Assembly: GCA_031423695.1 (NCBI GenBank)
Contig: JANPGB010000286.1
Coordinates: 1 to 53,423 of the forward strand
Source of the DNA: Verrucomicrobiota bacterium
Lineage (GTDB): Bacteria > Verrucomicrobiota > Verrucomicrobiia > Limisphaerales > CAIQOK01
Direction: 5' to 3'
DNA length: 53,423 nucleotides
Shown here: positions 3,587 through 51,593 of the stretch, piece after piece
How positions within the stretch are numbered: position 1 is the first letter of the stretch
How the letters are laid out: each line of letters begins with the position of its first letter
Program-made: the position numbers and the translations under genes
Notes under the pieces: generated by a model
Seen by the model: only the letters and a program-made list of their open reading frames with translations
Databases searched by the model: none
Told to the model about the DNA's origin: nothing

Positions 3587-5762
3587 TCGAAGCACCACGC
3601 CTCCCAGCCACGGAGTGGCGGCAGGTAATAGCCCACGGCGTGAGCCGTGGGGAACGGCCATACAAACGGGCCGAGCCGCGGAGCAGCGAAAGAATTTTGA
3701 AGACGACGCTTTCTTTCGCCCCTGCCGGGGCTTGATCTATTTCAAATCCTCAACCCACGGCTCGCACCGTGGGCTACTCTCTGACGCTGCTCCGCAGCTA
3801 CTGTTGGCGCTGCTGACCTTCTTAAATTTTTCCCTGAACGCCGCGACTTTGCCCGCGGACTGGCGGCGCGAACAATCCTTCACCCTCTCCACCGCCGGCC
3901 TTACGAAGTTGAGCCTGCCGGTGGAAACGCTCGATGCCGCGCTGACCGCGCTCGAAGACTTGCGGCTCTACGATGACGCGGGGAACGAGGTGCCGTATGT
4001 AATCGAACGTCCCGTACCGACCGTGAAGATCGTGCGGACGGTGAAGTCCTTTCAGGTCGCGATGCAGGCCCGCGCCACAGTCATCACCATCGAAACCGGT
4101 CTCGGGCAACCGCTCGACACCGTCACGCTGGAGACGCCCGCGCTGGATTTCCTCAAGCCCGTGCGTGTGGAAGCTTCCGCCGATGGCCGTACCTGGCAGA
4201 AGCTCGCGCAAGGCCAGCCGGTCTTCCGCCAGCCGAATGGCGCGAGCCGGTTGCAGCTCAACTTTTCCTCCGGTGTCTGGGCGTGGCTGCGGCTGACCGT
4301 GGATGATCAGCGCACGGCTGCAATTCCATTCACGGGTGCCCGCGTTCAGGCGACCGTCACGGAATCGGCGCCTGTCGAATGGTCCCAGGCCCGCATTTCC
4401 GAAAGCCAAGAAAACCCCGGCGAGACCCGGCTCGCGTTGAATCTCGGAGCCGCGAACCTCAGCGTGGCGAACGTGTGGATTGCGACGGACGAACCGCTCT
4501 TCTCGCGCCACGTCACCCTGGCTGTGCCGCAAATCACGGAGGCCGAGATTCGTGAACAGGCCGTCGGGCAGGGTGCGGTTTATCGTGTCGCCGTCGAAGG
4601 GCAACCGGCGTCGGAAAATCTCTCAGTGCCCCTGGAGCAGCAGGTGCGCTCGCGCGAGCTGCTGGTATTCGTCAAAAACGAAAACAACCCGCCGCTGCCA
4701 ATCAAGTCGGTGCGGATCGAGCGGCGTCCGGTCTATCTCGTGTTCCTTGCGAAACAGGCCGGCACGTTTCATCTGCTCACTGGCAACGACCATTGCCCCG
4801 CGCCGAAATATGATCTTGCCGCGCTGGGCATGAACCTGAAATCCGTGGCCGTCTCTCCAGTCAAGATTTCGGCGCCGGCGGACAGCGCCAGCTATCGCGC
4901 GCCGGAAGTTTTGCCAGGCGTCGAGGATGGCGGCACGGCGCTGGACGTGGCGGATTGGAAATTTCGCCAGCCCGTCAAGCTGGCCCGTTCTGGCGCGCAG
5001 CAGCTTGAGCTCGGCCTTGAAGCGCTTTCCCAGGCCCAGCCGGGACTGGGCGATCTGCGATTGTTGCGCGGCGGAAAACAGGTCCCCTACCTGCTCGAAC
5101 ACACGTCCATCAGCCGCGCCATTCCGCCGGCGGTAACGGCAACGACCGACGCGAAAGATCCCAAGCTCAGCCGTTGGATCCTCAAACTGCCGCACGCCAA
5201 CCTGCCGGTCACGCGGCTCACCTGTGTGGCGCGCACGGCCCTGTTTGAGCGGGAGATCCGTGCGTACGAAGAGGTCGCTGATCAACGCGGAGAAAAGTAT
5301 CGACGCGCTCTGGGCGCGGCTTCCTGGGTTCAAATGCCCAACCGCACGAGCAAAGAATTTGTTCTGACGCTGAGCGGCCCGTTGCAATCCGACACGCTGT
5401 TTCTGGAAACCCACAACGGCGACAACGCCCCGATCAACCTCGAGAATTTTCAGCTGTTCCATCCCGTGTCGCGCGTGGTCTTCAAGGCCGCCGCCGGCGA
5501 TGATTTTTTTCTCTACTACGGCAACCGGCGCGTCGCCGCGCCGCGCTACGATCTGAGCCTGGTTGCCGGACAATTGCTGGCGGCGGAAAAATCCGCTGCC
5601 ACGTTGGCCGCGCGGGAGCAGCTCAAGAAATCGGCGTGGGGTGAAAACCGGATGCCCGGCCAGGGAGGCGTGTTGTTCTGGGGGATTCTCGCCGTCGTGG
5701 TCGTGGGGCTGCTCGTGGTCATTTCTCGGCTGCTGCCCAAGGCATCGCCACCGCCGTCATAG
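3570..5762 (+). CDS. DUF3999-like exported protein with a C-terminal TM anchor; start uncertain (ATG 3570 or TTG 3804)
   Basis: Long ORF. It carries two DLRL-x-GxxVPY motifs (LEDLRLYDDAGNEVPYV and LGDLRLLRGGKQVPYL) and a C-terminal anchor (VLFWGILAVVVVGLLVVISRLL). ATG 3570 has aagga upstream and overlaps the previous stop. A family-A repeat at 3628-3780 lies between this ATG and the hydrophobic signal core LLLALLTFLNFSLNAA. Confidence 0.7.
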   Translation: MKRLNDRSTTPPSHGVAAGNSPRREPWGTAIQTGRAAEQRKNFEDDAFFRPCRGLIYFKSSTHGSHRGLLSDAAPQLLLALLTFLNFSLNAATLPADWRREQSFTLSTAGLTKLSLPVETLDAALTALEDLRLYDDAGNEVPYVIERPVPTVKIVRTVKSFQVAMQARATVITIETGLGQPLDTVTLETPALDFLKPVRVEASADGRTWQKLAQGQPVFRQPNGASRLQLNFSSGVWAWLRLTVDDQRTAAIPFTGARVQATVTESAPVEWSQARISESQENPGETRLALNLGAANLSVANVWIATDEPLFSRHVTLAVPQITEAEIREQAVGQGAVYRVAVEGQPASENLSVPLEQQVRSRELLVFVKNENNPPLPIKSVRIERRPVYLVFLAKQAGTFHLLTGNDHCPAPKYDLAALGMNLKSVAVSPVKISAPADSASYRAPEVLPGVEDGGTALDVADWKFRQPVKLARSGAQQLELGLEALSQAQPGLGDLRLLRGGKQVPYLLEHTSISRAIPPAVTATTDAKDPKLSRWILKLPHANLPVTRLTCVARTALFEREIRAYEEVADQRGEKYRRALGAASWVQMPNRTSKEFVLTLSGPLQSDTLFLETHNGDNAPINLENFQLFHPVSRVVFKAAAGDDFFLYYGNRRVAAPRYDLSLVAGQLLAAEKSAATLAAREQLKKSAWGENRMPGQGGVLFWGILAVVVVGLLVVISRLLPKASPPPS
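3628..3780. repeat. Nested-palindrome element, family A, copy 1 (reverse orientation relative to copy 2)
   Basis: Terminal hairpins are cccacggc-gtga-gccgtggg (3632-3651) and cccacgg-ctcgca-ccgtggg (3754-3773). The reverse complement aligns along its length with 39031-39176, including the internal caagccccgg..ggggcg and ctttcgc blocks. Confidence 0.7.
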
Positions 5763-5834
5763 GAGCGCGGACAGCCTTGTCCGCAGAAGCTTTTCCACGG
5801 GCGGGAAATTGCGGGCAAGGCTGCCCGCGCTCCT
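5761..5834. repeat. Inverted-repeat hairpin between convergent gene ends (family D-like); possible bidirectional terminator
   Basis: aggagcgcggacagccttg (5761-5779) matches the reverse complement of caaggctgcccgcgctcct (5816-5834) at 18 of 19 positions. Each arm also holds its own 7-bp hairpin (gcggaca/tgtccgc and gcgggca/tgcccgc). There is no U-tract. Confidence 0.55.
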
Positions 5835-5858: not shown

Positions 5859-6443
5859 CTACTCCGATTCATCGGGCGACGGCCGCGTGCCGCCCAGAAC
5901 TTTCAGGGCGAACTGCTCGTAAGGTGTCAGTACCCGGCCATGCGCGAGCGTCTCGTGAACAGCTTGGAGGCTCATGCAAAAATCCAGATCGTGCAGCGGG
6001 CGGTCGCGCAGGATGCGCTGCTTCCAGCGCGGTTCCTCGGTGACTTCCTGAATCTCCGCGGCGCTGCCGGGACGGAAGGACATCAGCCAGTGGTCGCGCT
6101 TGATGAAGCCCTCGGTTTCGCCCTTGGCCTCAAACCAGCCGTCGCAGAGCAGCAGGCACACGGATTTGCCTTGGTTGGAACCGATCCGATAGAAAACCAC
6201 GCGCGCTTCAAAGTCGCAGAAATGCGCGTAGGCGATCTGCTCCGCATCCGGCGGCGGCGGAGTGATCTGGGTCTGGAAGCCGAGCTTGAAGCCGTCTTTC
6301 GCGGACGGATCCTTTTCAAAGCAGAGGTTTTCGTCGAAGATCCAGACGAGGTCCGTCGGCAGCTGGCGCTGGCCCAGGAGGATTTTCCATTCGTTCAAGG
6401 CGTCCCGGAACGACGGACGGGCGAATTGAGGGAGGTTCGGCAT
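5859..6443 (-). CDS. Hypothetical protein, apparently translationally coupled to the upstream epimerase gene
   Basis: 194-aa ORF with an ATG start 3 nt after the epimerase stop (TAA-TTT-ATG on the minus strand). I recognise no family. Confidence 0.65.
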   Translation of the reverse strand: MPNLPQFARPSFRDALNEWKILLGQRQLPTDLVWIFDENLCFEKDPSAKDGFKLGFQTQITPPPPDAEQIAYAHFCDFEARVVFYRIGSNQGKSVCLLLCDGWFEAKGETEGFIKRDHWLMSFRPGSAAEIQEVTEEPRWKQRILRDRPLHDLDFCMSLQAVHETLAHGRVLTPYEQFALKVLGGTRPSPDESE

Positions 6444-6446
6444 AAA

Positions 6447-7418
6447 TTAAAAGGCGGTCTGTTTGAACCAGTCCACGAACACGGGGATGCCTTGTTCGAT
6501 CTTGGTATGGGGGTTGTAGCCCAGCCGGGCCTGAGCCTTGGAAATATTGGCGAACGTCAGCGGCACGTCGCCGGGCTGCATGGGCTGGCGGTCAATGATT
6601 GCCTTCTTGCCGAGGGCGCTTTCCAGCAGCTCGATCATGTAGCTCAGCTTCACGACCTGCGATTCGCCGAGGTTGAAAATTTCATAACCAAATTCCTGCT
6701 GCGTACAGGCCAGGATGCCGTCGAGGATGTCGCCGACAAAAGTATAGTCGCGCGCGGTCGAGCCGTCGCCGAAAACCGGAATCGGTTTTCCCGCCGTGAT
6801 GAGCTTCGCGAATTTGTAGATCGCCAGATCGGGGCGCTGACGGCGGCCATAGACCGTGAAGAAGCGGAGCATCACCACATCCATGCCGTAGATGTGATGA
6901 TAAACGTGGCCCAGCGCCTCGCAGCACAGCTTGCTCGCGGCGTACGGCGAAATGGCGGAGAAGATCGGATCGCTTTCCGAAAACGGCACCTTGGAATTCA
7001 GGCCATAGACCGAGGAGGTGGAGGCGATGGTGATTTTTTTGACGCCAGCATGGCGCGCGGCTTCGAGCACGTTGACCGTGCCTTCGACGTTCACGCGCTG
7101 GTAAAGGACCGGGTCAAGCAGGCTCGGCCGGACACCCGCACGGGCCGCGAGATGAATGATCTGGTCGAACTTCACGCTGGCGAACAACTGGTCCAGCGCG
7201 GCGCGGTCGGTGATCGTGCCTTTGACAAAAGTGAACGGCAGCCCGAGCGCCTGGATTTCCGCGAGGTTGCGCTGCTTGAATTTCGGATCGTAGAAATCGT
7301 TCAACTCGTCAAAAGCCCAGACCGCATGGCCCGAACGAAGCAGCCGCTCGCACAGATTCGATCCAATAAAGCCGGCGCCACCGGTGACGAGAAAGTTCAC
7401 GCCGGGAAAATTAGACAA
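6447..7418 (-). CDS. NAD-dependent nucleotide-sugar epimerase/dehydratase (UDP-glucuronate 4-epimerase-like)
   Basis: Carries TGGAGFIGSNL (Rossmann fold), YAASK (catalytic YxxxK) and MLRFFTVYGRRQRPDLA. The start is either TTG 7418 or GTG 7400 (MNFLVTGGAGFIGS). Confidence 0.9.
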   Translation of the reverse strand: MSNFPGVNFLVTGGAGFIGSNLCERLLRSGHAVWAFDELNDFYDPKFKQRNLAEIQALGLPFTFVKGTITDRAALDQLFASVKFDQIIHLAARAGVRPSLLDPVLYQRVNVEGTVNVLEAARHAGVKKITIASTSSVYGLNSKVPFSESDPIFSAISPYAASKLCCEALGHVYHHIYGMDVVMLRFFTVYGRRQRPDLAIYKFAKLITAGKPIPVFGDGSTARDYTFVGDILDGILACTQQEFGYEIFNLGESQVVKLSYMIELLESALGKKAIIDRQPMQPGDVPLTFANISKAQARLGYNPHTKIEQGIPVFVDWFKQTAF

Positions 7419-12421: not shown

Positions 12422-14584
12422 ATGAAACCGTTCGCGCGCATTTTTCTGCTGACCTTCGGGGTGGCCGGAATTTCCGGGTGCCATCCGTTCGTCACCAAAC
12501 TTGAAACGACCAACACCGTGAACACCAACGCCACCAACCCCGCGCATACCAACCGCCTCGCGCGCGAAAAATCCCCCTACCTCCTCCAGCACGCCCACAA
12601 TCCCGTGGACTGGTTTGCTTGGAATGACGAGGCGTTCGAAAAAGCCCGCCGTGAAAACAAACCCATCTTCCTGAGCATCGGTTACTCGACCTGCCATTGG
12701 TGCCACGTCATGGAGCGCGAGTCGTTCGAGGACGAAAAGATTGGCGCATATCTCAACGCCCACTTCGTCAGCATCAAGGTGGACCGCGAGGAGCGGCCCG
12801 ACGTGGACAAGATTTACATGACCTTCGTGCAGTCCACGACCGGCTCCGGCGGCTGGCCGATGAATGTTTTCCTGACCACCGATCTGAAACCCTTTTACGG
12901 CGGCACGTATTTTCCGCCGGATGCACGTTATGGGCGGCCCAGTTTTCTGCAACTGCTGGAACACATCCACCAGCTTTGGGAAACACGGCGCGACGACTTG
13001 AACGCTTCCGCCGCCGAAATCCACACCCGGCTGGAAGGGATGGCGGAAACCAAGGTCAGCAATGCTCGGCTCGCACTCACCGCCGCCGTGCTGCAACAGG
13101 CCGGCCTGCGCTTCAAGGAATCTTACGATCCGCGCAACGGCGGCTTCGGGAGTGCGCCCAAGTTCCCGCAGCCAAGCCAGCCTCAACTGCTGTTGCGGTA
13201 TGCCCGGCGTTTTCAGGACGAGGAGGCGCAGGGCATGGTGCTGCACATGTGCGACAAGATGGCGGCGGGCGGGATTCACGACCAGCTCGGCGGCGGCTTT
13301 TCGCGCTACTCGGTGGATGCCGAATGGCTCGTGCCGCATTTCGAAAAGATGCTCTACGACAACGCGCAGCTCGTGCAGCTCTATCTGGACGCCTTTCTCG
13401 TCAGCGGCGAAGCGCGGCACGCGGCGGTGGCGCGGGACATCCTCGATTATGTGCTGCGCGACATGACGCATCCCGACGGCGGGTTTTATTCCGCCGAAGA
13501 CGCCGACAGCGAAGGCATCGAGGGAAAATTCTACTGCTGGACGCGCGCGGAGTTGTCCAGGCTGCTGACGACCGAGGAATTCAACGTGGCCGTCCGTTGC
13601 TTTGGCATCACCGAAAACGGGAACTTCATTGACCACAGCCATCCGCAGCCGCTGCCGAATCAAAACGTGTTGAGTATTGTCGAGCCGCCAACTGCCAGCG
13701 ACGAAGCCTTGTTCAATTCCGCCAAGGCAAAAATGCTCGGCGTCCGCAATCACCGCATCCGCCCGCATCTGGACGACAAGGTTCTCGCGTCCTGGAACGG
13801 CCTGATGCTCGGCGCCTTCGCCCGCGCTTCCGTCGTGCTGGGTGAGGAAAAGTATCGCGCGGCGGCGGAGAAAAACGTGGCGTTCCTTCAGGCAAATCTC
13901 TGGGACGCAAAATCCAAAACCCTTTACCACCGCTGGCGCGACGGCGAGCGCGACCAGGTGCAACTGCTCGAAGCCTACGCGTCGCTGTTGGCCGGAGTGA
14001 TCGAACTTTACGAAGCCACGCTGGAACCGAAGCATCTCGAATTTGCCAACGACCTCGCTCAAGCGATGCTCGCAAAGTTTTACGACGCGGAACACGGCGG
14101 CTTCTGGCAGAGCGCGGCAGATGCGAAGGATTTGATTCTGCGCGTGAAGGAGGATTACGACGGCGCGGAGCCTTCCGGCAATTCCGTCGCGCTGCTGGCG
14201 CTGCTGAAGCTGGGGGCGATCACGGGGCGTCAGGAATTTTCCGGGGCCGCCGAGAAAAGTCTGCGGCTGTTCGCGGAGCGCTTGCAGCAGGTACCGCAGG
14301 CCGTGCCGTACATGTTGCAGGCGCTGGATTTTTCGTTGCAGGAACCGAAGCGGGTCGTGGTGGTGGGAGACATGGATTCCACGGATTTTCACGGATTGTT
14401 GCAAGCGGCCCATTCGGTTTATCAACCAAACAAGGTGGTGCTGGGGAATGTCGGTGCGGTGGAAGAATTCGCGCGAACTTTGTCGGCAAAAGAGAAGCCG
14501 CTCGTTTATCTCTGCGCGGGCAATGCCTGTCAGGCACCGACGAGTGAGGTGGCCGAAGTGAAGAAAAACTTGTCGCCGCCTTAG
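12422..14584 (+). CDS. Thioredoxin-domain (DUF255) / YyaL-type protein with an N-acylglucosamine-2-epimerase-like alpha-toroid; lipoprotein signal
   Basis: [20 protein letters not shown] (lipobox); [54 protein letters not shown]. The track start at 12410 is GTG and the ATG is at 12422. Confidence 0.9.
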
Positions 14585-14630
14585 GAGCGCTGGAGGATCA
14601 AAGATTTGTAGCCTATCGAGATTAGGCCGT

Positions 14631-15101
14631 TCATCTGACAAAAGAAGGAAACCCATAGTGTGATTTGCCATCAAACAGATAGTCGGTCGAAAGGCTTTTC
14701 GATCGGCTGACGTCCCATTTCCCGGACTGCTTGACCCAAACATCCTCAAAGGAATCAATCGCCTCTATTTTGACAACCTTCTTGGTTTCGGGATCAGTGG
14801 CCAAAATACTATCGTTATACTCTACCACGACGACTGCCGTGTCGTCTTGCAATGAAAACTTTTTGATGGTTCTTAGCTGACGCATTGATTTGTCATCTAC
14901 CTTGAAGGCGGTTGGCCAATGTAAAACAAAAGGATGTTTGGACGTTCCTGATGCATATAGGGGAGAGCAATAGATGTCCATAATCGTCTGGCGTGCCTGT
15001 GCGACGGCATCATTCTCCGCCACTGGCGCTGAGGAATCACCTGCAAATCGCGCGCAACCCGAAAACAAAAGGGCAGCGAGAAAAGTGCAAATAGGCTTCA
15101 T
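14631..15101 (-). CDS. Small lipoprotein, hypothetical (NTF2-like by composition), in an AT-richer islet
   Basis: ATG at 15101 gives MKPICTFLAALLFSGC (lipobox). The segment is visibly AT-richer than its flanks and is flanked by 18-bp direct repeats. Confidence 0.6.
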   Translation of the reverse strand: MKPICTFLAALLFSGCARFAGDSSAPVAENDAVAQARQTIMDIYCSPLYASGTSKHPFVLHWPTAFKVDDKSMRQLRTIKKFSLQDDTAVVVVEYNDSILATDPETKKVVKIEAIDSFEDVWVKQSGKWDVSRSKSLSTDYLFDGKSHYGFPSFVR

Positions 15102-15287
15102 ACACAATTAAGACACATCTGGAGTCATTGTCTTAGACGAATTCAAGTCGTTCGTGCGCATCGGCCTAACAGTGAGTTGACGCCTCGATTTGCAGCCTAT
15201 CAAGTTTCATGTTTGGACGTTATTTCCGACGCAATGGGTTGTCGAACCCAAAGTTTTTCCCGCGATGCTGCAGTCACGAGGAACATC

Positions 15288-15455
15288 GTAGCGGCAGGCA
15301 TCCTTGCCTGCCGTAGAGCCGTGGCTTCCAGCCCGGCGGAAAAAACTCACTGCCACCCGAACGCTAGAAACTTTCGGGAGCGCTCACGCATTCGTCCGTC
15401 TGTTCCGGGCGGCAGGATGCCGCCCTCTACGTCAGGCAAGGATGCCTGACGCTAC
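15288..15455. repeat. MITE-like element, family D
   Basis: The left end gtagcggcaggcatccttgcctgccgtagag matches the reverse complement of the right end ctctacgtcaggcaaggatgcctgacgctac at 29 of 31 positions. Each end is itself a hairpin (ggcaggcatccttgcctgcc). Confidence 0.7.
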
Positions 15456-15465
15456 GCCCCCGTCT

Positions 15466-31862: not shown

Positions 31863-31937
31863 AGCCTTGAAACACACAAAATGACATGAAAAATTATGCA
31901 TTCCTTACGTGTATTTCGTAGTTAATTGTTTTGTCCT

Positions 31938-32309
31938 ATGCTTTGGGAAGACCAAGAATTAAACCACGCTACTCCCGAAACAAAATTCCCCGAGGTTTTT
32001 TTCACGAGTCTTGAATTGCCTAGTCTCGCAGAAAGAAAGTCGGGTGACTATTTGTTGGTGGATCAGGAGAAGCTAGACGCGATGATTAAAACGGGTGAAC
32101 TGGGTAGCCGAACAAAGGGGGTAAGAATTAAAAGGCTTTGTATGTTTTTCCGTTTATTTTGCAGTCTTGGACCAGGTGAAGAGCATTATCCAACTTTAGG
32201 AGTCATGCATTTCTGGAGTAATTCTGTCAGCAAGTATGCCATCTTTTGTTTTTCTCCAAATAACGACTGGCTGAAGGTCCTTGTGGTTACTGCATCAGCC
32301 CCCGCTTGA
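31938..32309 (+). CDS. Orphan ORF in an AT-rich insert (weakly supported)
   Basis: The only sizeable ORF in the visibly AT-rich 31870-32305 segment. I recognise no family. It overlaps the start of the next gene. Confidence 0.3.
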   Translation: MLWEDQELNHATPETKFPEVFFTSLELPSLAERKSGDYLLVDQEKLDAMIKTGELGSRTKGVRIKRLCMFFRLFCSLGPGEEHYPTLGVMHFWSNSVSKYAIFCFSPNNDWLKVLVVTASAPA

Positions 32310-32311
32310 AA

Positions 32312-36895: not shown

Positions 36896-36968
36896 GCTTG
36901 GGGAATATCGGGTTTCGGTTGGAGGCGCAAGCAGTTCCTCAGTCGCCCAAAGACTCGGAGGGAGTTGC

Positions 36969-37126
36969 ACCGCGAAACACACGAACTACACGAAAAAACA
37001 CAGAACAAGTCGGACGAAGCGCCACTTGCCTGACCGAAACACACATCCGGATTTGGAAACTCAGGATATGCTAAAAAGCTGAACGCCTTCCGCTCCCCAT
37101 TTTGTATAGTTCGTGTGTTTCGCGGT
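36969..37126. repeat. MITE-like element, family F (22-bp terminal inverted repeats)
   Basis: accgcgaaacacacgaactaca (36969-36990) matches the reverse complement of tatagttcgtgtgtttcgcggt (37105-37126) at 21 of 22 positions. This symmetry explains why two spurious track ORFs both begin with MCFAV. Confidence 0.75.
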
Positions 37127-37142
37127 TAAAATTCAGTCCGAC

Positions 37143-39030: not shown

Positions 39031-39176
39031 TAGCCCGAGGTGAAACCGTGGGCTTGGTGGTCAAAAGAAATTCAAGCCCCGGATGGGGCGGGAGAAAATC
39101 ATCAACGAACATTCCTTTCGCCTCCGCCGCCGCTTTATTTGTTTGCGCATGTTTGCCCTCGGTTTCACCGTGGGCT
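39031..39176. repeat. Nested-palindrome element, family A, copy 2
   Basis: The ends are tagcccgaggtgaaaccgtgggc and gccctcggtttcaccgtgggct. It aligns with the reverse complement of 3628-3780. Confidence 0.7.
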
Positions 39177-45088: not shown

Positions 45089-46765
45089 ATGAGCACTCAA
45101 TACACCATCGGTCTGGACTACGGCACGAACTCGGTTCGCGCCCTCATCGTCAACGTCGCCAACGGCGCGGAAGTCGCCGCCGCCGTCTGGGGCTACTCAC
45201 ACGGCACTGCTGGCGTCGTGCTCGGCCGCGACCCGAATCTGGCCCGCCAGCATCCCGCCGATTACCTGAAAGGCGCGGAGCTCACCATCCAGCAGGCGCT
45301 CGCCACGGCGAAGAAAACCGTGCGCGGCTTCAGCGCCAGCCAGGTCATCGGCATCGGTGTTGACACCACCGGCAGCACGCCGTTGCCGGTAGGCAAGGAC
45401 GGACAACCGCTCGTCTTCCAGAAAAAGTTTGCAAACAATCCGGCGGCGATGGCGTGGTTGTGGAAAGATCACACCGGCATTGCCGAGGCGGCGGAAATCA
45501 CCGCGCTCGCTAAAAAGATGCGCCCGCAATATCTCGCCAAGTGCGGCGGCACGTATTCGAGCGAATGGTTCTTTAGCAAAATTTTGAAATGCCTCCGCAC
45601 CGCGCCGGAGGTTTTCAACGCCGCGCATTCGTGGATTGAGCTGTCCGACTTTGTCCCCGCCGCGCTGACCGACACGCTTGCGCCGGACAAGTTCACCGCC
45701 GGTATCTGCGCCGCCGGCCACAAGGCGATGTATAGCGCGAGTTGGGGCGGCTATCCCGACAAACAATTTCTCGCGAAGCTTGATCCGAAGCTCGGCGCAT
45801 TGCGCGATCGTTTGACGAAGCGCGTGCTCGCCGTGGATTCCGCCGCCGGAAAACTGACGGCGGCCTGGGCGAAGAAAACCGGCCTGTCGGCGGGCATTCC
45901 CGTGGCGGTCGGCGCGTTCGACGCCCACACCGGCGCGATTGGCGCGGGCGTCAAACCCGGCACGCTCGTGAAGATCATCGGCACGAGCACCTGCGACATC
46001 AGCGTGCGCGTGAACACCGCCAAGCTCGCGGACATCCCCGGCGTCTGCGGCATCGTGGACGGCAGCGTCGTCCCCGGTTACTTCGGCATCGAGGCCGGGC
46101 AATCCGCGGTGGGCGACATGTTCAACTGGCTGGTGAATTACATCCAACCCGGCGGCACAAAGGCCGGTTCGCACGAGGAGCTCACCAAGGGCGCGTTGAA
46201 ACTTCAGCCCGGCGAAAGCGGCCTGCTCGCGCTCGACTGGAACAACGGCAATCGCACGATTCTCGTGGACCAGCAGCTCAGTGGTTTGATTCTCGGCCAG
46301 ACGCTTTACACCACGCCGGCGGAAATTTACCGCGCGCTCATCGAGGCGACGGCTTACGGCGCGCTGACCATCATCAACCGCTACGAGGAATACGGCGTGA
46401 AGATTTCCGAGGTGGTGAACTGCGGCGGCATCGCCGAGAAAAGCGCGCTCGTCATGCAGACCTACGCGGACATCACGGGTCGTCCGATGAAGATCAGCCG
46501 CTCGGCGCAAACCTGCGCGCTGGGTTCGGCGATTGCCGCCGCGGTCATTGCCGGGGCGCACAAGGATTTTGCGTCCGCGCAAACGGCCATGACCGGTTTG
46601 AAGGCGAAAGTCTATAAGCCGAATCCGAAAGCCCACGCGGTTTACAAGGAGCTATACGCGCTCTACAAACAGTTGCACGACGCCTTCGGCACGAAGGAAT
46701 GGAACGGCAATCTGTATGGTGTGATGAAGAAGCTGATTGAAGTTCGGAGTCGCGTGAGGAAATGA
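45089..46765 (+). CDS. araB: Ribulokinase (FGGY family)
   Basis: In-frame ATG at 45089. MSTQYTIGLDYGTNSVRALIV...GVDTTGSTPLPV...GGTYSSEWFFSKILK...GGIAEKSALVMQTYADITGRPM. Confidence 0.9.
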   Translation: MSTQYTIGLDYGTNSVRALIVNVANGAEVAAAVWGYSHGTAGVVLGRDPNLARQHPADYLKGAELTIQQALATAKKTVRGFSASQVIGIGVDTTGSTPLPVGKDGQPLVFQKKFANNPAAMAWLWKDHTGIAEAAEITALAKKMRPQYLAKCGGTYSSEWFFSKILKCLRTAPEVFNAAHSWIELSDFVPAALTDTLAPDKFTAGICAAGHKAMYSASWGGYPDKQFLAKLDPKLGALRDRLTKRVLAVDSAAGKLTAAWAKKTGLSAGIPVAVGAFDAHTGAIGAGVKPGTLVKIIGTSTCDISVRVNTAKLADIPGVCGIVDGSVVPGYFGIEAGQSAVGDMFNWLVNYIQPGGTKAGSHEELTKGALKLQPGESGLLALDWNNGNRTILVDQQLSGLILGQTLYTTPAEIYRALIEATAYGALTIINRYEEYGVKISEVVNCGGIAEKSALVMQTYADITGRPMKISRSAQTCALGSAIAAAVIAGAHKDFASAQTAMTGLKAKVYKPNPKAHAVYKELYALYKQLHDAFGTKEWNGNLYGVMKKLIEVRSRVRK

Positions 46766-46767
46766 TT

Positions 46768-47400
46768 TTTAGCCACGGATGGACACAGATGAAACACGGA
46801 TAAAGCAAAGTGAGCAAAGTGACCGAACCGCTCTTCATAGCAACCGAACGCTTTGACCCGACTGATGGGGAAAAGTGGCGGAAGTATTTTGAGTGGGCAA
46901 AAATTCCTGTACTGAAAGAAATCGTAAGTTTGGATACGTGTCTTTGCGGACACCTCATCAAAGACCTTTTGGATGATGATTGGAAGCACATTGTCTGCGA
47001 AGATTTTCGCTTAAGTTATTTCAAAGATTTGGATTATCTTTTACAGCGAGTTCTCGATGTGAAGCGCAGAAACATTCTTGGATTATACAGAAACCCTGTC
47101 GAACACATTGCAACCACACCGGCCAATCGCGATTTCAATTTTGTTGGATATGATTTGATTGAAGAGACAACTCAAATAAGCGCGTTAACAAATTGCGGTG
47201 GCTTTCCTGACGCGTTCAGCAATCAGGAGTTGAATTTTTCAGGCTTGATTTCAGAATTTGAGCGCGCAAGTGCAGTGAGGCAATTATTGATTGAAAAGTA
47301 TCCAGAAGAGGCACACGCCGATTGTGAAATGTATGCGGTTTGGAGATTAAGCGAATGAGTTTTTATCCGTGTTTCATCTGTGTTCAATCTGTGGCTAAAG
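46768..47400. mobile_element. Inverted-repeat-bounded cassette (family G arms) carrying one AT-rich ORF, filling the araB-araD spacer
   Basis: The left arm tttagccacggatggacacagatgaaacacggataaag (46768-46805) matches the reverse complement of the right arm tttatccgtgtttcatctgtgttcaatctgtggctaaag (47362-47400) at about 34 of 38 positions. The arms start 3 nt after the araB stop and end 10 nt before the araD ATG. Confidence 0.5.
46810..47358 (+). CDS. Hypothetical protein (passenger ORF of the IR-bounded cassette)
   Basis: 182-aa ORF with a GTG start, visibly AT-richer than the neighbours. It is the only long ORF between the arms. I recognise no family. Confidence 0.55.
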   Translation: MSKVTEPLFIATERFDPTDGEKWRKYFEWAKIPVLKEIVSLDTCLCGHLIKDLLDDDWKHIVCEDFRLSYFKDLDYLLQRVLDVKRRNILGLYRNPVEHIATTPANRDFNFVGYDLIEETTQISALTNCGGFPDAFSNQELNFSGLISEFERASAVRQLLIEKYPEEAHADCEMYAVWRLSE

Positions 47401-47410
47401 AAAATTTATT

Positions 47411-48103
47411 ATGCTCGAAAAATTGAAAGCTGAAGTCTGCAAAGCAAACCTGGATCTGGTGGCCGAAGGATTGGTCATCCAGACTTGGGGCAATGTCAGC
47501 GGCCTGGATCGCGAACGCGGTCTCATGGTCATCAAACCGTCCGGCGTGCCTTACTCCGAGATGCAACCCAAGCACATGGTTGTCGTCGCGCTAGCCACTG
47601 GCAAGGTCGTCGAAGGCAAGCTCAAGCCCAGCTCGGACACGGACACGCATCTGGTGCTGTATCGCGCGTTCCCGAAAATCGGCGGCGTGGTGCATACCCA
47701 CAGCCTTTACGCGACGGCATGGGCGCAGGCGTGCAGGGGGCTCGCCGCTTACGGCACGACGCAGGCGGATTACTGGTATGGCGACGTGCCGGTGACGCGC
47801 AAGCTGACACCCGCCGAGATCAAAAATGATTACGAGGCGAACACCGGCGAGGTCATCGTGGAGACGTTCAAGGGCCTCGACCCGTTGCAGCATCCAGCAG
47901 TGCTGGTGGCGAGCCACGGGCCGTTCACCTGGGGCAAGTCCGTGCATGACGCGGTTCACAACGCGAGCGTGCTGGAATTTGTGGCGCGGCTGAACAGCGA
48001 AATGCTGCGCGTCAATCCGAAGATCAAGCCGATGCAGCCGGTGCTGCTCGACAAACATTTCATGCGCAAACACGGGCCGAAGGCGACCTACGGACAGAAA
48101 TGA
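47411..48103 (+). CDS. araD: L-ribulose-5-phosphate 4-epimerase
   Basis: MLEKLKAEVCKANLDLVAEGLVIQTWGNVSGLDRERGLMVIKPSGVPY...GGVVHTHSLYATAWAQA. Confidence 0.92.
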   Translation: MLEKLKAEVCKANLDLVAEGLVIQTWGNVSGLDRERGLMVIKPSGVPYSEMQPKHMVVVALATGKVVEGKLKPSSDTDTHLVLYRAFPKIGGVVHTHSLYATAWAQACRGLAAYGTTQADYWYGDVPVTRKLTPAEIKNDYEANTGEVIVETFKGLDPLQHPAVLVASHGPFTWGKSVHDAVHNASVLEFVARLNSEMLRVNPKIKPMQPVLLDKHFMRKHGPKATYGQK

Positions 48104-48129
48104 AATCCGAATGACGAAATCCGAATGAC
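48102..48129. repeat. 2 x 14-bp tandem repeat (gaaatccgaatgac)
   Basis: Direct read, overlapping the last two bases of the araD stop codon (48101-48103). Confidence 0.7.
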
Positions 48130-48138
48130 GCAGATTGC

Positions 48139-49314
48139 ATGAGCCTGAAATTTTTAATTTTCAAACGCGCCCGGCATGGCAATCCCAAAGGGATTGCGAC
48201 CTCCAGCCCAAGGTTGCGAGGCGCGAGCTACCTTGGGTTGCTGTTTGAAAGTTTTTCTGCCCCAACGGGGTTGCGTTGTGTTTTCGCGGCCCGGCCACAA
48301 CCCCGTTGGGGTTGTTCACTCTTGCTATCCGCATTTCCCAGGGTAGCTCGGGCCTCGCAACCCTGGGCTTTGTGCCGGAATCCCGTTGGGATTCTTGCTT
48401 TGTTTGTGCTGATGTTGGTTCTAAACATCAGCCATGCCGCCGACACGAACTCGGTTTTTCTCTTCTCCTTTTTCCGTGAGCCGAACGGGCAGGGTGGCTT
48501 GCAACTGGCAACGAGCGCGGACGGATTGAAATGGACGGAGATCAAGCCGCCCGCCGGAGCTTCTTTCATCAAACCGGAAGTCGGCGGCAGGCTGATGCGT
48601 GATCCCAGTCTGGCACTCGGGCCGGACGGCACGTTTCACATGGTCTGGACGACCAGTTGGGGACGTCCGCCGGTGTTTGGCTATTCCAGTTCCAAGGATC
48701 TGATTCACTGGACGGAGCAGCGCGCGATTCCCGTGATGGAGGACGCGCCGGACGCTAAGAACGTCTGGGCGTCGGAACTTTTCTACGACGCGAAGAAGGC
48801 GCAGTGGTTAATTTTCTGGGCCAGCACGATTCCCGGAAAATTTCCCGAGACGGAAAATTCCGGCGACAACAACCATCGCATCTACTGCGTGACCACGAAG
48901 GATTTCCAGACGTTCAGCAGGACGCGATTGTTTTACGACGGCGGCTTCAACGTGATTGACGCCATGATGCTTCCGGCGAAAGGGAGGTTTTATCTCGTCG
49001 TGAAGGATGAGACGAAGAACCCGGTGAAGAAAGATCTCCACCTCGCGGTCAGCGACAAAGCGGAAGGCCCGTTCAGCAAGGCCGGCCCCGCGATCAACGG
49101 GGATTGGGTCGAAGGTCCGACGGCGCTTCAGATCGGCGGCGAGTACTACATTTATTTTGACCATTACACGAACCCCAAGTATTACGGAGCGGTGAAATCA
49201 CCCGACTTGGAACACTGGCAGGACATTTCCGCTCAAGTGTCGTTTCCCAAAGGCATCCGCCACGGCACGGCTTTGAAAGTTCCCGCAGGCGTGGTGCAGA
49301 ACCTTCTGAAGTAA
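48139..49314 (+). CDS. GH43-like five-bladed beta-propeller glycoside hydrolase (arabinan/arabinoside-related by context); start uncertain (ATG 48139, or TTG 48400 / GTG 48406 / ATG 48412)
   Basis: The mature part reads LMRDPSLALGPDGTFHMVWTTSW...NVWASELFYD...WVEGPTALQIGGEYYIYFDHY. The first 85 or so codons of the long ORF are read through the family-B repeat. Confidence 0.75.
   Translation: MSLKFLIFKRARHGNPKGIATSSPRLRGASYLGLLFESFSAPTGLRCVFAARPQPRWGCSLLLSAFPRVARASQPWALCRNPVGILALFVLMLVLNISHAADTNSVFLFSFFREPNGQGGLQLATSADGLKWTEIKPPAGASFIKPEVGGRLMRDPSLALGPDGTFHMVWTTSWGRPPVFGYSSSKDLIHWTEQRAIPVMEDAPDAKNVWASELFYDAKKAQWLIFWASTIPGKFPETENSGDNNHRIYCVTTKDFQTFSRTRLFYDGGFNVIDAMMLPAKGRFYLVVKDETKNPVKKDLHLAVSDKAEGPFSKAGPAINGDWVEGPTALQIGGEYYIYFDHYTNPKYYGAVKSPDLEHWQDISAQVSFPKGIRHGTALKVPAGVVQNLLK
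48179..48396. repeat. MITE-like element, family B (multi-hairpin, mirror-symmetric)
   Basis: Symmetric series: atcccaaagggat; cccaaggttgcgaggcgcgagctaccttggg; ccccaacggggttg; caaccccgttggggttg; cccagggtagctcgggcctcgcaaccctggg; atcccgttgggat. Confidence 0.75.
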
Positions 49315-51499: not shown

Positions 51500-51508
51500 T
51501 CAATACTT

Positions 51509-51586
51509 GTAGGAGCCGACGTAAGGAGGCTCAAACTGGATTTGCATCTCACGATTTAATTAGAGCCTCCTTACGTCGGCTCCTGC
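51509..51586. repeat. Perfect 22-bp-stem hairpin (family E) between the binding-protein and ATPase genes
   Basis: aggagccgacgtaaggaggctc (51511-51532) is the exact reverse complement of gagcctccttacgtcggctcct (51563-51584). The loop is 30 nt. The ATPase ATG is at 51594. Confidence 0.85.
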
Positions 51587-51593
51587 AAAATTT

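Follow-up and report, generated by a model that had tools for sequence, protein, structure and literature searches.

We analyzed a 53,423-nt stretch of DNA from a Verrucomicrobiota bacterium (GCA_031423695.1, contig JANPGB010000286.1; referred to as the window) and focused on a 633-bp element at 46768-47400, which lies in the spacer between araB and araD of an arabinose operon and consists of one small gene, here called X, enclosed by two inverted repeat arms. The reading that we favor, with a probability of about 0.62, is that of a filled hairpin slot: X would be carried by a promoterless accessory cassette that sits in a hairpin similar to repetitive extragenic palindromic (REP) sequences and miniature inverted-repeat transposable elements (MITEs) and that is expressed by read-through from the operon. 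In the contigs aligned here (designated by L numbers), the position of the slot is clearly conserved while its cargo differs between close relatives, both at the araB-araD junction and at one or more sufB-sufC junctions. A preliminary description of the region had proposed either a MITE that captured a passenger gene or a gene that landed in the loop of a palindromic element. These two possibilities are not fully separated by our data; the evidence points to a third description, a conserved slot with differing cargo in close relatives at the two junctions.

The coordinates of the features are given in Table 1. The left arm (TTTAGCCACGGATGGACACAGATGAAACACGGATAAAG) starts 2 nt after the araB stop codon (TGA at 46763-46765), and its inverted copy (TTTTATCCGTGTTTCATCTGTGTTCAATCTGTGGCTAAA) ends at 47400, upstream of the araD ATG at 47411, so that the distances to the two genes are as first described. 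A repeat finder detected a 25-nt inverted repeat core (46780-46804 and 47362-47386, 96% complementary), and if one indel is allowed the arm pairing extends over 46760-46804 and 47362-47407 (local-alignment score 60, z = 16 compared to shuffles). Counted by eye, the arms of 38 and 39 nt show 35 matches in 39 columns, which makes the earlier estimate of about 34 of 38 a fair one. Within each arm the CACRGAT units are spaced 10-11 nt apart. Clusters of at least two such units occur three times in the window (shuffle mean 0.02), namely in both arms and as a two-unit match at 14380; we dismissed the latter as a chance match because it is located inside coding sequence. The cassette has a G+C content of about 0.40, compared to about 0.60-0.65 in araB and araD, in agreement with the AT-richness noted before, and the G+C content at third codon positions (GC3) is 0.43 for X compared to 0.81 for araB and 0.79 for araD. 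X had been described as a single open reading frame (ORF) of 182 codons with a GTG start. This ORF exists on the plus strand (46810-47358), but the homologues favor the second GTG at 46819, as does the gene predicted in a copy of 99% identity (P0001, 179 aa).

Table 1. Coordinates of the cassette, its host genes and a related gene-less element in the window
Feature	Position	Strand	Description
araB-like FGGY sugar kinase	45089..46765	+	558 aa from ATG; Pfam FGGY_N, FGGY_C; upstream host gene
Diverged tract, araB 3' end	46720..46765	+	contains 7 of the 9 positions at which araB differs from the empty allele; interpreted as the left part of the recombination import that brought in the cassette
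Left arm	46768..46805	+	three phased CACRGAT units CCACGGATGGA CACAGATGAAA CACGGATAAA; pairing reaches 46760
Cargo gene X	46819..47358	+	179 aa; alternative GTG at 46810 gives 182 aa; motif SALTNCGGF
Right arm	47362..47400	-	inverted copy of the left arm; pairing reaches 47407
araD-like L-ribulose-5-phosphate 4-epimerase	47411..48103	+	Pfam Aldolase_II and source names of close homologues; downstream host gene
Gene-less element of a sibling arm type	36965..37130	.	166 bp; ACCGCGAAACACACGAACTACACGAAAAA and inverted copy, 31-nt arms, 104-nt loop

Relatives of the araB-araD junction were retrieved with AraD as the query. Two contigs, L218 (21.8 kb) and L219, carry an empty allele together with an AraD (P0333) that is a one-residue variant of the window AraD (100% identical after rounding). 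In this allele the araB stop codon TAA is followed by a 78-nt spacer (ATTTAACCGCTAATGAACGCTAATTGACGCTAATAAAAATTCATTCGCGTGAATTCGCGGTTCAAAAAAATCAATTTT) and the araD ATG. The spacer is a short hairpin of the same build, made of CGCTAAT/CGCGAAT units and containing no gene, and a modest RNA stem is predicted for it (-15.9 kcal/mol, z = -2.2). The occupied allele was found in a further contig as well (L212, GCA_031375975.1). As judged by this comparison, the cassette is clearly an accessory allele, since a gene-less spacer occurs in contigs that are about 99.6% identical in the flanks; the junction comparison thereby bears out the insertion-type allele that had been proposed. The related claim that removal of the cassette restores a normal operon junction holds in one respect: a cassette-free allele does exist, but its spacer holds the 78-nt sibling hairpin and not a bare junction.

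Comparing the window with L218, we observed 1 difference in the aligned stretch upstream of araB, 9 of 1677 in araB and 20 in about 4090 nt downstream. Of the nine in araB, seven fall within 46720-46764; reading the sequences, the coding changes are synonymous except for one V to I replacement, and the stop codons are TGA and TAA, respectively. The next differences downstream are at 47425 and 47515. Because the araB differences cluster in the last 46 nt of the gene, we favor replacement by recombination and not plain insertion into a resident hairpin, and the pattern indicates that in the occupied allele a segment from about 46720 to about 47425 was probably replaced by sequence of a diverged relative.

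The same comparison bears on whether X could be native to the arabinose operon and take part in sugar catabolism. X has the same orientation as the operon, is tightly spaced and has no apparent promoter of its own, and in a distant Verrucomicrobiota contig (L027, AraD 74% identical) X is likewise located directly upstream of araD. However, X is not conserved at this position: it is missing from the near-identical contigs L218 and L219 of the same species and is replaced by unrelated ORFs in four close relatives (L214, L215, L216 and L220). Moreover, members of the X family are found elsewhere in suf, lut, trp, mur, RtcB and two-component operons, and its GC3 is far below the value of about 0.8 in the flanking genes. 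Conservation of the ORF at this place across distant taxa, which the preliminary description had named as the sign of a native gene, is thus not what we observed; apart from the copy in L027, the ORF is polymorphic at araB-araD even within the species. A native metabolic role is therefore barely conceivable.

In the relatives with an AraD of 92-97% identity we found another ORF at the position of X, followed by the right arm and araD. The cargo of L214 is an ORF with a Mrr_cat domain that matches the PADLOC models PDC-S02 and mREase_IV, next to a right arm; L215 carries a weakly HSDR_N-like ORF with a short arm, L216 a 112-aa ORF between CACGAAA-type arms, and L220 yet another ORF with a right arm. 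All four contigs end inside the cargo, which we attribute to a site that varies in the population and therefore breaks the assembly. The second junction at which the cargo differs is sufB-sufC, which is occupied by X in L001-L009, L012, L013 and L213 (for L012 and L013 the downstream gene was assigned to SufC by blastp clustering, not by Pfam). In L119, which shares 94.5% SufB identity with L001 over 273 aligned residues, a GxxExxY/PDDEXK_3 gene lies between two arms at this junction, while L001, L007, L012, L013 and L213 show X between two arms or X with one arm. After the sufB stop codon, the arms of L119 and those of the X carriers start at nearly the same place, no more than a few nucleotides apart. 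Over all junctions examined, the distance from the upstream stop codon to the start of the element is 2-13 nt. Plain hairpins make up most of the copies, and a minority hold a single small gene in the loop. This cargo is co-oriented with the host genes wherever host genes are visible, and it is usually AT-richer than the flanks.

Among the copies located at suf, the identity of X follows that of SufB and SufC (L001 compared to L213: X 83%, SufB 91%; L001 compared to L007: X 75%, SufB 86%), and for this reason X appears to be a long-term resident of the suf slot. The X of the window, located at ara, nests among the suf copies (80% identical to L001), so that X probably moved between slots at least once. 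This move should not be recent, given a synonymous divergence of about 0.9 between the window X and its nearest copies.

Next, we considered the arms themselves. A scan of metagenome contigs for the triple-unit arm gave at least 120 loci (574 kb), and the following arm statistics refer to the 120 that were listed. At least 45 facing (inverted) arm pairs were observed, with loops mostly of 0-125 nt, a few of 180-412 nt and one of 1023 nt, and neighboring arms face each other in 49 of 59 cases. This fits the earlier view of the cassette arms as two halves of a palindromic repeat element. The consensus of the outer end, taken from 138 metagenomic arms, is TTARC-CACRGAT. Many but not all arm ends have a TA close by (T 0.52 and A 0.66 at positions -4 and -3), which could belong to the palindrome. 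At none of the 120 loci is a relative of X encoded. Across this sample the arms clearly behave as a general palindromic repeat family that is not tied to X; they are common in metagenomes as short hairpins, contrary to the possibility, raised at the outset, that they might occur nowhere else. A GxxExxY/PDDEXK_3 protein of 131-132 aa is encoded in the loops of L119, L120 and L158, and an AT-rich element of 1077 bp between arms in L192 contains a 326-aa ORF without a match. Unpaired arms have 44 ORFs on their inner side, and PDDEXK_3 is the only family that recurs among these. The sole transposase near an arm in the sample is of the IS630 type (L180); as its terminal repeats differ from the arms, we ruled it out as the parent element.

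X itself is a real protein-coding gene of foreign composition under strong purifying selection (dN/dS, the ratio of nonsynonymous to synonymous divergence, 0.05-0.18). It had been called an orphan gene, a label that does not hold: X belongs to a large uncharacterized family. A word-indexed search gave 338 relatives with 64-99% identity among the matches listed; those with names are all 'hypothetical', and many originate from metagenome-assembled genomes (MAGs) of Verrucomicrobiae. An exhaustive search of 50%-identity representatives gave 559 clusters, and a profile search gave 1932 clusters at 90% identity in many phyla; in species-representative genomes, relatives of X occur at 234 loci. The family is present in Verrucomicrobiota, Planctomycetota, Acidobacteriota, Mesorhizobium/Rhizobium, Gemmatimonadota, Chloroflexota, Myxococcota and others, and it is absent from the 72,556 plasmids, 50,697 phage records and IMG/VR contigs searched. 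X and 37 diverse relatives showed no match in Pfam, NCBIfam, PADLOC, PHROGs or PDB sequence profiles; with no PADLOC match, X is not assigned to any known anti-phage defense system. Structure prediction, which had been proposed as a check on the protein, gave a confident AlphaFold (AF2) model from 55 sequences (predicted local distance difference test score 93.4, predicted template modeling score 0.89), but Foldseek found no significant fold neighbor in PDB or BFVD (best E 2.3 and 0.14, respectively; query-normalized template modeling score 0.25 or less). A divergent PD-(D/E)XK nuclease was ruled out by hhalign (probability 0.2% against PDDEXK_3). Residues conserved in the closer set of relatives include W20, D39, C43, D54, W55, G110, D112, S121, C126-G-G-F, H166, C169 and W175; across the wider set, invariance is limited to G110, S121 and G142, with C126 almost invariant. 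In almost every one of about 90 loci, X has a lower G+C content than the flanks. This low G+C content is also seen in the suf-located copies despite their apparent long residence; selection for AT-richness or repeated re-introduction may account for the lack of amelioration.

X might itself be the mobility enzyme, a transposase or recombinase of a new kind encoded by an autonomous element that ends in the arms. The gene-less hairpins would then be its non-autonomous MITE derivatives, and the case would be comparable to the genes of REP-associated tyrosine transposases (RAYTs) flanked by REPs. A gene flanked by inverted arms whose family also has many gene-less hairpins is indeed the arrangement of REPtrons and TIRtrons (PMC3733652). 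Furthermore, no assembly occurs twice among the best 80 of the 234 genome loci, which fits a single-copy gene like RAYT, and the new fold of the model leaves room for a novel activity. Several observations disagree, however. X is found at none of the listed arm loci, the same arms bear unrelated cargo, most X genes are armless (for example in Mesorhizobium and Acidobacteriota) with the Mesorhizobium copies sharing neighboring genes, and no HUH, DDE or recombinase signature was detected for X in the libraries searched. We consider this explanation highly improbable.

To describe the genomic settings of the family, we inspected X loci beyond the window. In the Verrucomicrobial and Planctomycete loci examined, X lies shortly 3' of a co-oriented gene, with a gap of 9-53 nt in the listed cases. 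The junctions include sufB-X-sufC, lutA-X-lutB, trpA-X-nucleotidyl transferase, RNase HII-X, GlmU-like-X, RtcB-X and murG-X-murC-murB, and in Blastocatellia X is located between a histidine kinase and a sigma-54 response regulator. The neighbors are heterogeneous, and among the loci examined no partner gene recurs beside X outside closely related genomes. In Mesorhizobium, X lies on the opposite strand between genes for a prolyl oligopeptidase and an MFS transporter, a synteny that is common across species. A 15-nt inverted repeat around the Mesorhizobium X was judged to be a chance match because its right copy overlaps the MFS transporter ORF. CACGGAT-type arms flank X only in the closest Verrucomicrobial relatives, namely in the window, L001-L006, L012, L013, L015 and, as read from the alignments, L213, and these copies span three different junctions. 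In L007 only the left arm is present, and in L010 the arms are decayed. Hairpins in general are not enriched beside X (6 observed and 7 expected across 79 loci).

Some further repeats were noticed around X in single contigs. In L020 (a Planctomycetia MAG), X lies between two direct copies (5880-5975 and 6553-6645) of a different palindromic element of about 95 bp (GAAAAGGTGACAGCCACC...GGTGGCTGTCACTTTTT). Gene-less pairs are found close to X in L010 and L024, and L018, L026 and L038 have single arms or pairs in its vicinity. Between X and the right arm of L001 (4196-4240) there is a motif of the type GCAGAGGCGCAGAG / CTCTGCGCCTCTGCG, and the same motif occurs in the loops of two tandem CACGGAT hairpins in L194 (2483-2991), so that repeats are nested in repeats.

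These settings allow a further explanation to be weighed, according to which arms and cargo are functionally unlinked: palindromes would accumulate in AT-rich spacers, and permissive sites would be shared by coincidence and weak selection. Many unrelated palindromes are present in the window (3627-3778, 15287-15456, 36965-37130, 48205-48369 and 51507-51588), X is armless in most phyla, and arm sequences differ between cassettes at one and the same site. On the other hand, inverted arms abut the ORF on both sides in all of the arm-flanked X copies listed above, at three junctions, and likewise the GxxExxY genes of L119, L120 and L158, the 326-aa ORF of L192 and the 112-aa ORF of L216. In addition, non-coding CACRGAT clusters occur in the window only at X. 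A coincidence of this kind seems improbable to us.

In three contigs we observed that ends of host genes are duplicated beside a cassette. In L010 (identical to L016; 3976-5044), lutA is followed by X with decayed arms, a 79-aa fusion ORF, a gene-less CACGGAT hairpin and lutB, in this order. The fusion ORF consists of the first ~80 nt of lutB fused to the last ~160 nt of lutA, and the intact hairpin has a GC-rich loop of about 140 nt that is itself palindromic. This arrangement looks like a single-crossover integration of a circular fragment containing the lutA end, X and the lutB start. In L027 (469-574), X and the right arm are followed by a 45-nt copy of the last 14 codons of araB with the stop codon (MMKQLIDIRNRVRK and stop) and then by araD. 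The copy begins at the equivalent of window position 46721, and the diverged tract of the window begins at 46720. In L217 (AraD 89% identical; 132-600), the araB stop codon is followed by a gene for a 66-aa Phd/YefM-like antitoxin, a second araB 3' end of about 110 nt and an arm-like sequence (AACCACTGATGCACACGAAGTAAAA), after which a 454-aa TPR-like ORF and a GH28 gene precede araD. Such duplicates would be expected if a circular fragment carrying a host-gene end together with the cassette had integrated by a single crossover, or if homology-facilitated illegitimate recombination had taken place.

Duplicated ends and diverged flanks are also compatible with X, like the nuclease cargos, being a selfish gene that targets hairpins. 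Its product would recognize or cut the empty hairpin or a cruciform, and repair from the occupied allele would copy the gene into the loop in a homing-like manner with co-conversion of the flanks, so that the arms would be the resident target and not a mobile unit. A conserved slot with changing cargo would follow, and three of the other cargos carry PD-(D/E)XK-type domains (PDDEXK_3/GxxExxY, Mrr_cat and a weak HSDR_N match). Next to the cassette there is a short diverged flank tract as in co-conversion, duplicated host-gene ends adjoin the cassettes of L010, L027 and L217, X of L020 is located between two copies of a different palindromic element, and the ORF nearly fills the loop (0-14 nt from the arms in most copies). 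However, X has no detectable nuclease or DNA-binding domain, no fold match and no similarity to the PDDEXK_3 profile, and the hairpin count beside X given above does not exceed expectation. Moreover, the empty allele has a different type of hairpin, so a simple insertion into it did not occur here. We therefore regard a selfish X as rather unlikely.

Several findings weigh against the filled hairpin slot as well. The units of the empty hairpin differ from those of the occupied arms, and the event at this junction would consequently be a replacement of the whole spacer; such a replacement does not reveal how X came to lie in a loop in the first place. No clear target-site duplication was seen, nor any direct repeat outside the arms in the window. 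A mobilizing enzyme or an autonomous parent with arm ends and a transposase was not found in the small sample of 44 inner-side ORFs. Most X genes beyond the closest Verrucomicrobial clade lack a flanking inverted repeat, which means that the family can also occupy operons without arms. Finally, all comparison sequences are metagenomic contigs or MAGs, and the assignment to the same species is based on an identity of about 99.6% across some 7.5 kb.

With the filled hairpin slot as the preferred reading, the following mechanism can be proposed. The slots would be REP/MITE-like palindromes in short operon spacers of Verrucomicrobiota, and also of some Planctomycetota and Acidobacteriota contigs, each arm comprising about three phased 7-nt units (here CACRGAT) with the outer end TTARCC. 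The cassette may have entered the lineage of the window by homologous or homology-facilitated recombination from a diverged donor that already had X at araB-araD. Inside the cassette we found neither a plus-strand promoter-like site nor any terminator-like site, and no Rfam family matches the cassette region. As there is no sign of an internal promoter or terminator, co-transcription of X with the ara operon is plausible, and X would be transcribed by read-through. In an RNA fold of a shortened construct the pairing of the arms amounts to -61 kcal/mol (z = -13.9), and in a fold of 691 nt (46740-47430) the long-range arm stem is kept and encloses the whole ORF. In the transcript the arms would form a stem of about 45 bp around the ORF, a potential substrate for double-strand-specific RNases, for which Correia elements and the intervening sequences of 23S rRNA provide a precedent. 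Exchange between strains would take place through the flanking homology, whereas movement between slots (suf, ara, trp and lut) may use the arms, either as recombination handles or as ends for a transposase acting in trans.

We compared this arrangement with known systems. A mobile insertion cassette (MIC) is exemplified by MIC231 of Bacillus cereus. The qnrS2 cassette of Aeromonas plasmids is another example of a MITE or MIC with a passenger gene (PMC5444012). As in our case, such elements consist of terminal inverted repeats around one or few genes with no transposase inside, and gene-less copies exist too. In contrast, we found no parent insertion sequence and no clear target-site duplication for the cassette, its arms are three phased 7-nt units, it is located in operon spacers directly after stop codons, and one site holds different cargo in close relatives.

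A second group comprises REP sequences, bacterial interspersed mosaic elements (BIMEs), hairpin-forming REP doublets (REPINs), REPtrons and TIRtrons (PMC3733652, PMC2817692, PMC3116915, PMC3333891). REP and REPIN elements resemble the slots in being short intergenic palindromes, often facing doublets that form hairpins and are probably transcribed with neighboring genes. In REPtrons and TIRtrons a gene lies between inverted repeat copies, and the REP carries a GTAG or CGTC tag at one end (PMC3733652). The arms described here have no such tag but the consensus TTARC-CACRGAT; the flanked gene is not a Y1 (HUH) transposase, as neither X nor the 37 relatives match Y1_Tnp; and the cargo varies between X, PD-(D/E)XK nucleases and others. 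A Y1_Tnp gene is present 3.8 kb from X in L007, with no arms around it. Correia elements of Neisseria are small spacer palindromes with TA ends that are co-transcribed with their neighbors and whose RNA hairpins are cut by RNase III. They contain no ORF, unlike the cassette, and TA flanks are only partly conserved in our elements.

Foreign segments in the middle of a palindrome, flanked by half-palindromes, are also produced by insertion sequences that target REP hairpins, such as IS1397, ISKpn1 and ISPpu9/ISPpu10 (PMC1525189, PMC12288879). Those segments are entire insertion sequences that encode a transposase and possess ends of their own, whereas here a bare ORF is found with 0-14 nt extra in most copies. 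Integron cassettes share with our element that they are promoterless single-gene units with an imperfect palindromic site, an external promoter and a fixed exchange site. The differences are arms on both sides in place of a single 3' attC, no arrays, and sites within housekeeping operons. No integrase was detected among the genes called or scanned near X homologues (the window itself was not screened for intI), and because of the two-sided arms and the missing array we do not regard the element as an integron cassette. In T4-like phages, free-standing homing endonuclease genes are located between conserved genes. These resemble X in the intergenic presence/absence polymorphism between close relatives and in the short diverged flank tract. 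Presence and absence with flanks of the co-converted type is what we observed at araB-araD, where the differences crowd at the araB end, but ordinary homologous recombination gives the same pattern; unlike homing endonucleases, X has no recognizable nuclease domain, and it is absent from the phage and viral collections searched. In architecture, the element is closest to MITE/MIC and REP/REPIN elements, yet it departs from their defining features where we checked them: no parent transposase turned up among the 44 inner-side ORFs, the flanked gene is not of the Y1 type, the GTAG or CGTC tag is missing, and any target duplication is indistinct. A literature search found no description of these arms or of this arrangement; its coverage is incomplete and it is thus weak evidence of novelty.

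Besides the cassette, the window contains numerous hairpin repeats belonging to several families. The gene-less element at 36965-37130 (Table 1) is located between the largest ORFs, which are on the minus strand, and its arms resemble the CACGAAA-type arms of L216; it shows that the genome has further elements built in the same way. A second AT-rich operon spacer (31863-32310, G+C content about 0.42-0.45) lies between a gene of 483 aa (end 31862) and an ORF of 381 aa (start 32306). It holds a 127-aa ORF with a TTG start (31926-32309) that has no PADLOC or NCBIfam match and is preceded by a degenerate hairpin-like sequence (GAAACACACAAAATGACATG...TTACGTGTATTTCGTAGTTAA); this spacer could be another filled or decayed slot. 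In the region 48100-48400, two tandem GAAATCCGAATGAC units directly follow the araD stop codon, and these are followed by palindromes of other families nested in one another (48181-48393), among them a pair of 28-nt arms (48205-48232 and 48342-48369). The nested palindromes lie inside the listed 5' part of a 391-aa GH43 ORF. Its ortholog in L218 was called with a later start (300 aa), so the true start of the GH43 gene is probably downstream of the repeats. A low-GC patch (about 0.44-0.46) is found at 14600-15100 after the stop codon of a plus-strand gene, with an apparent minus-strand ORF. Further long palindromes of unrelated sequence, with arms of 22-32 nt and loops of 20-106 nt, occur at 3627-3778, 5761-5834, 15287-15456, 39032-39176 and 51507-51588.

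If the observations on slots, arms and cargo are taken jointly, a wider reading emerges that we put forward tentatively and hold to be possible, with the odds against it. Verrucomicrobiota and their relatives may possess a so far undescribed cassette-exchange system, in which fixed slots after the stop codons of housekeeping genes would receive promoterless genes that are swapped between strains and between slots, with the arms serving as handles. The cargo would comprise PD-(D/E)XK nucleases, antitoxin-like genes and the new-fold X, and X would be a conflict-system protein acting in defense, counter-defense or addiction and not in metabolism. The company that X keeps, that is, small PD-(D/E)XK nuclease domains and an antitoxin-like gene, hints at such a role, in which case X would be a new kind of conflict-system protein. 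The comparison also draws attention to the X family, which at about 1900 clusters (90% identity) is unannotated, has no structural neighbor and is placed repeatedly in operons in a way that needs a functional explanation. For the assembly of metagenomes, the slots would explain recurrent contig breaks inside operons. If the slot reading is true, small accessory genes would spread in these bacteria with no need of plasmids, phages or a transposase of their own, riding in intergenic hairpins of essential and catabolic operons and borrowing the promoters of those operons.

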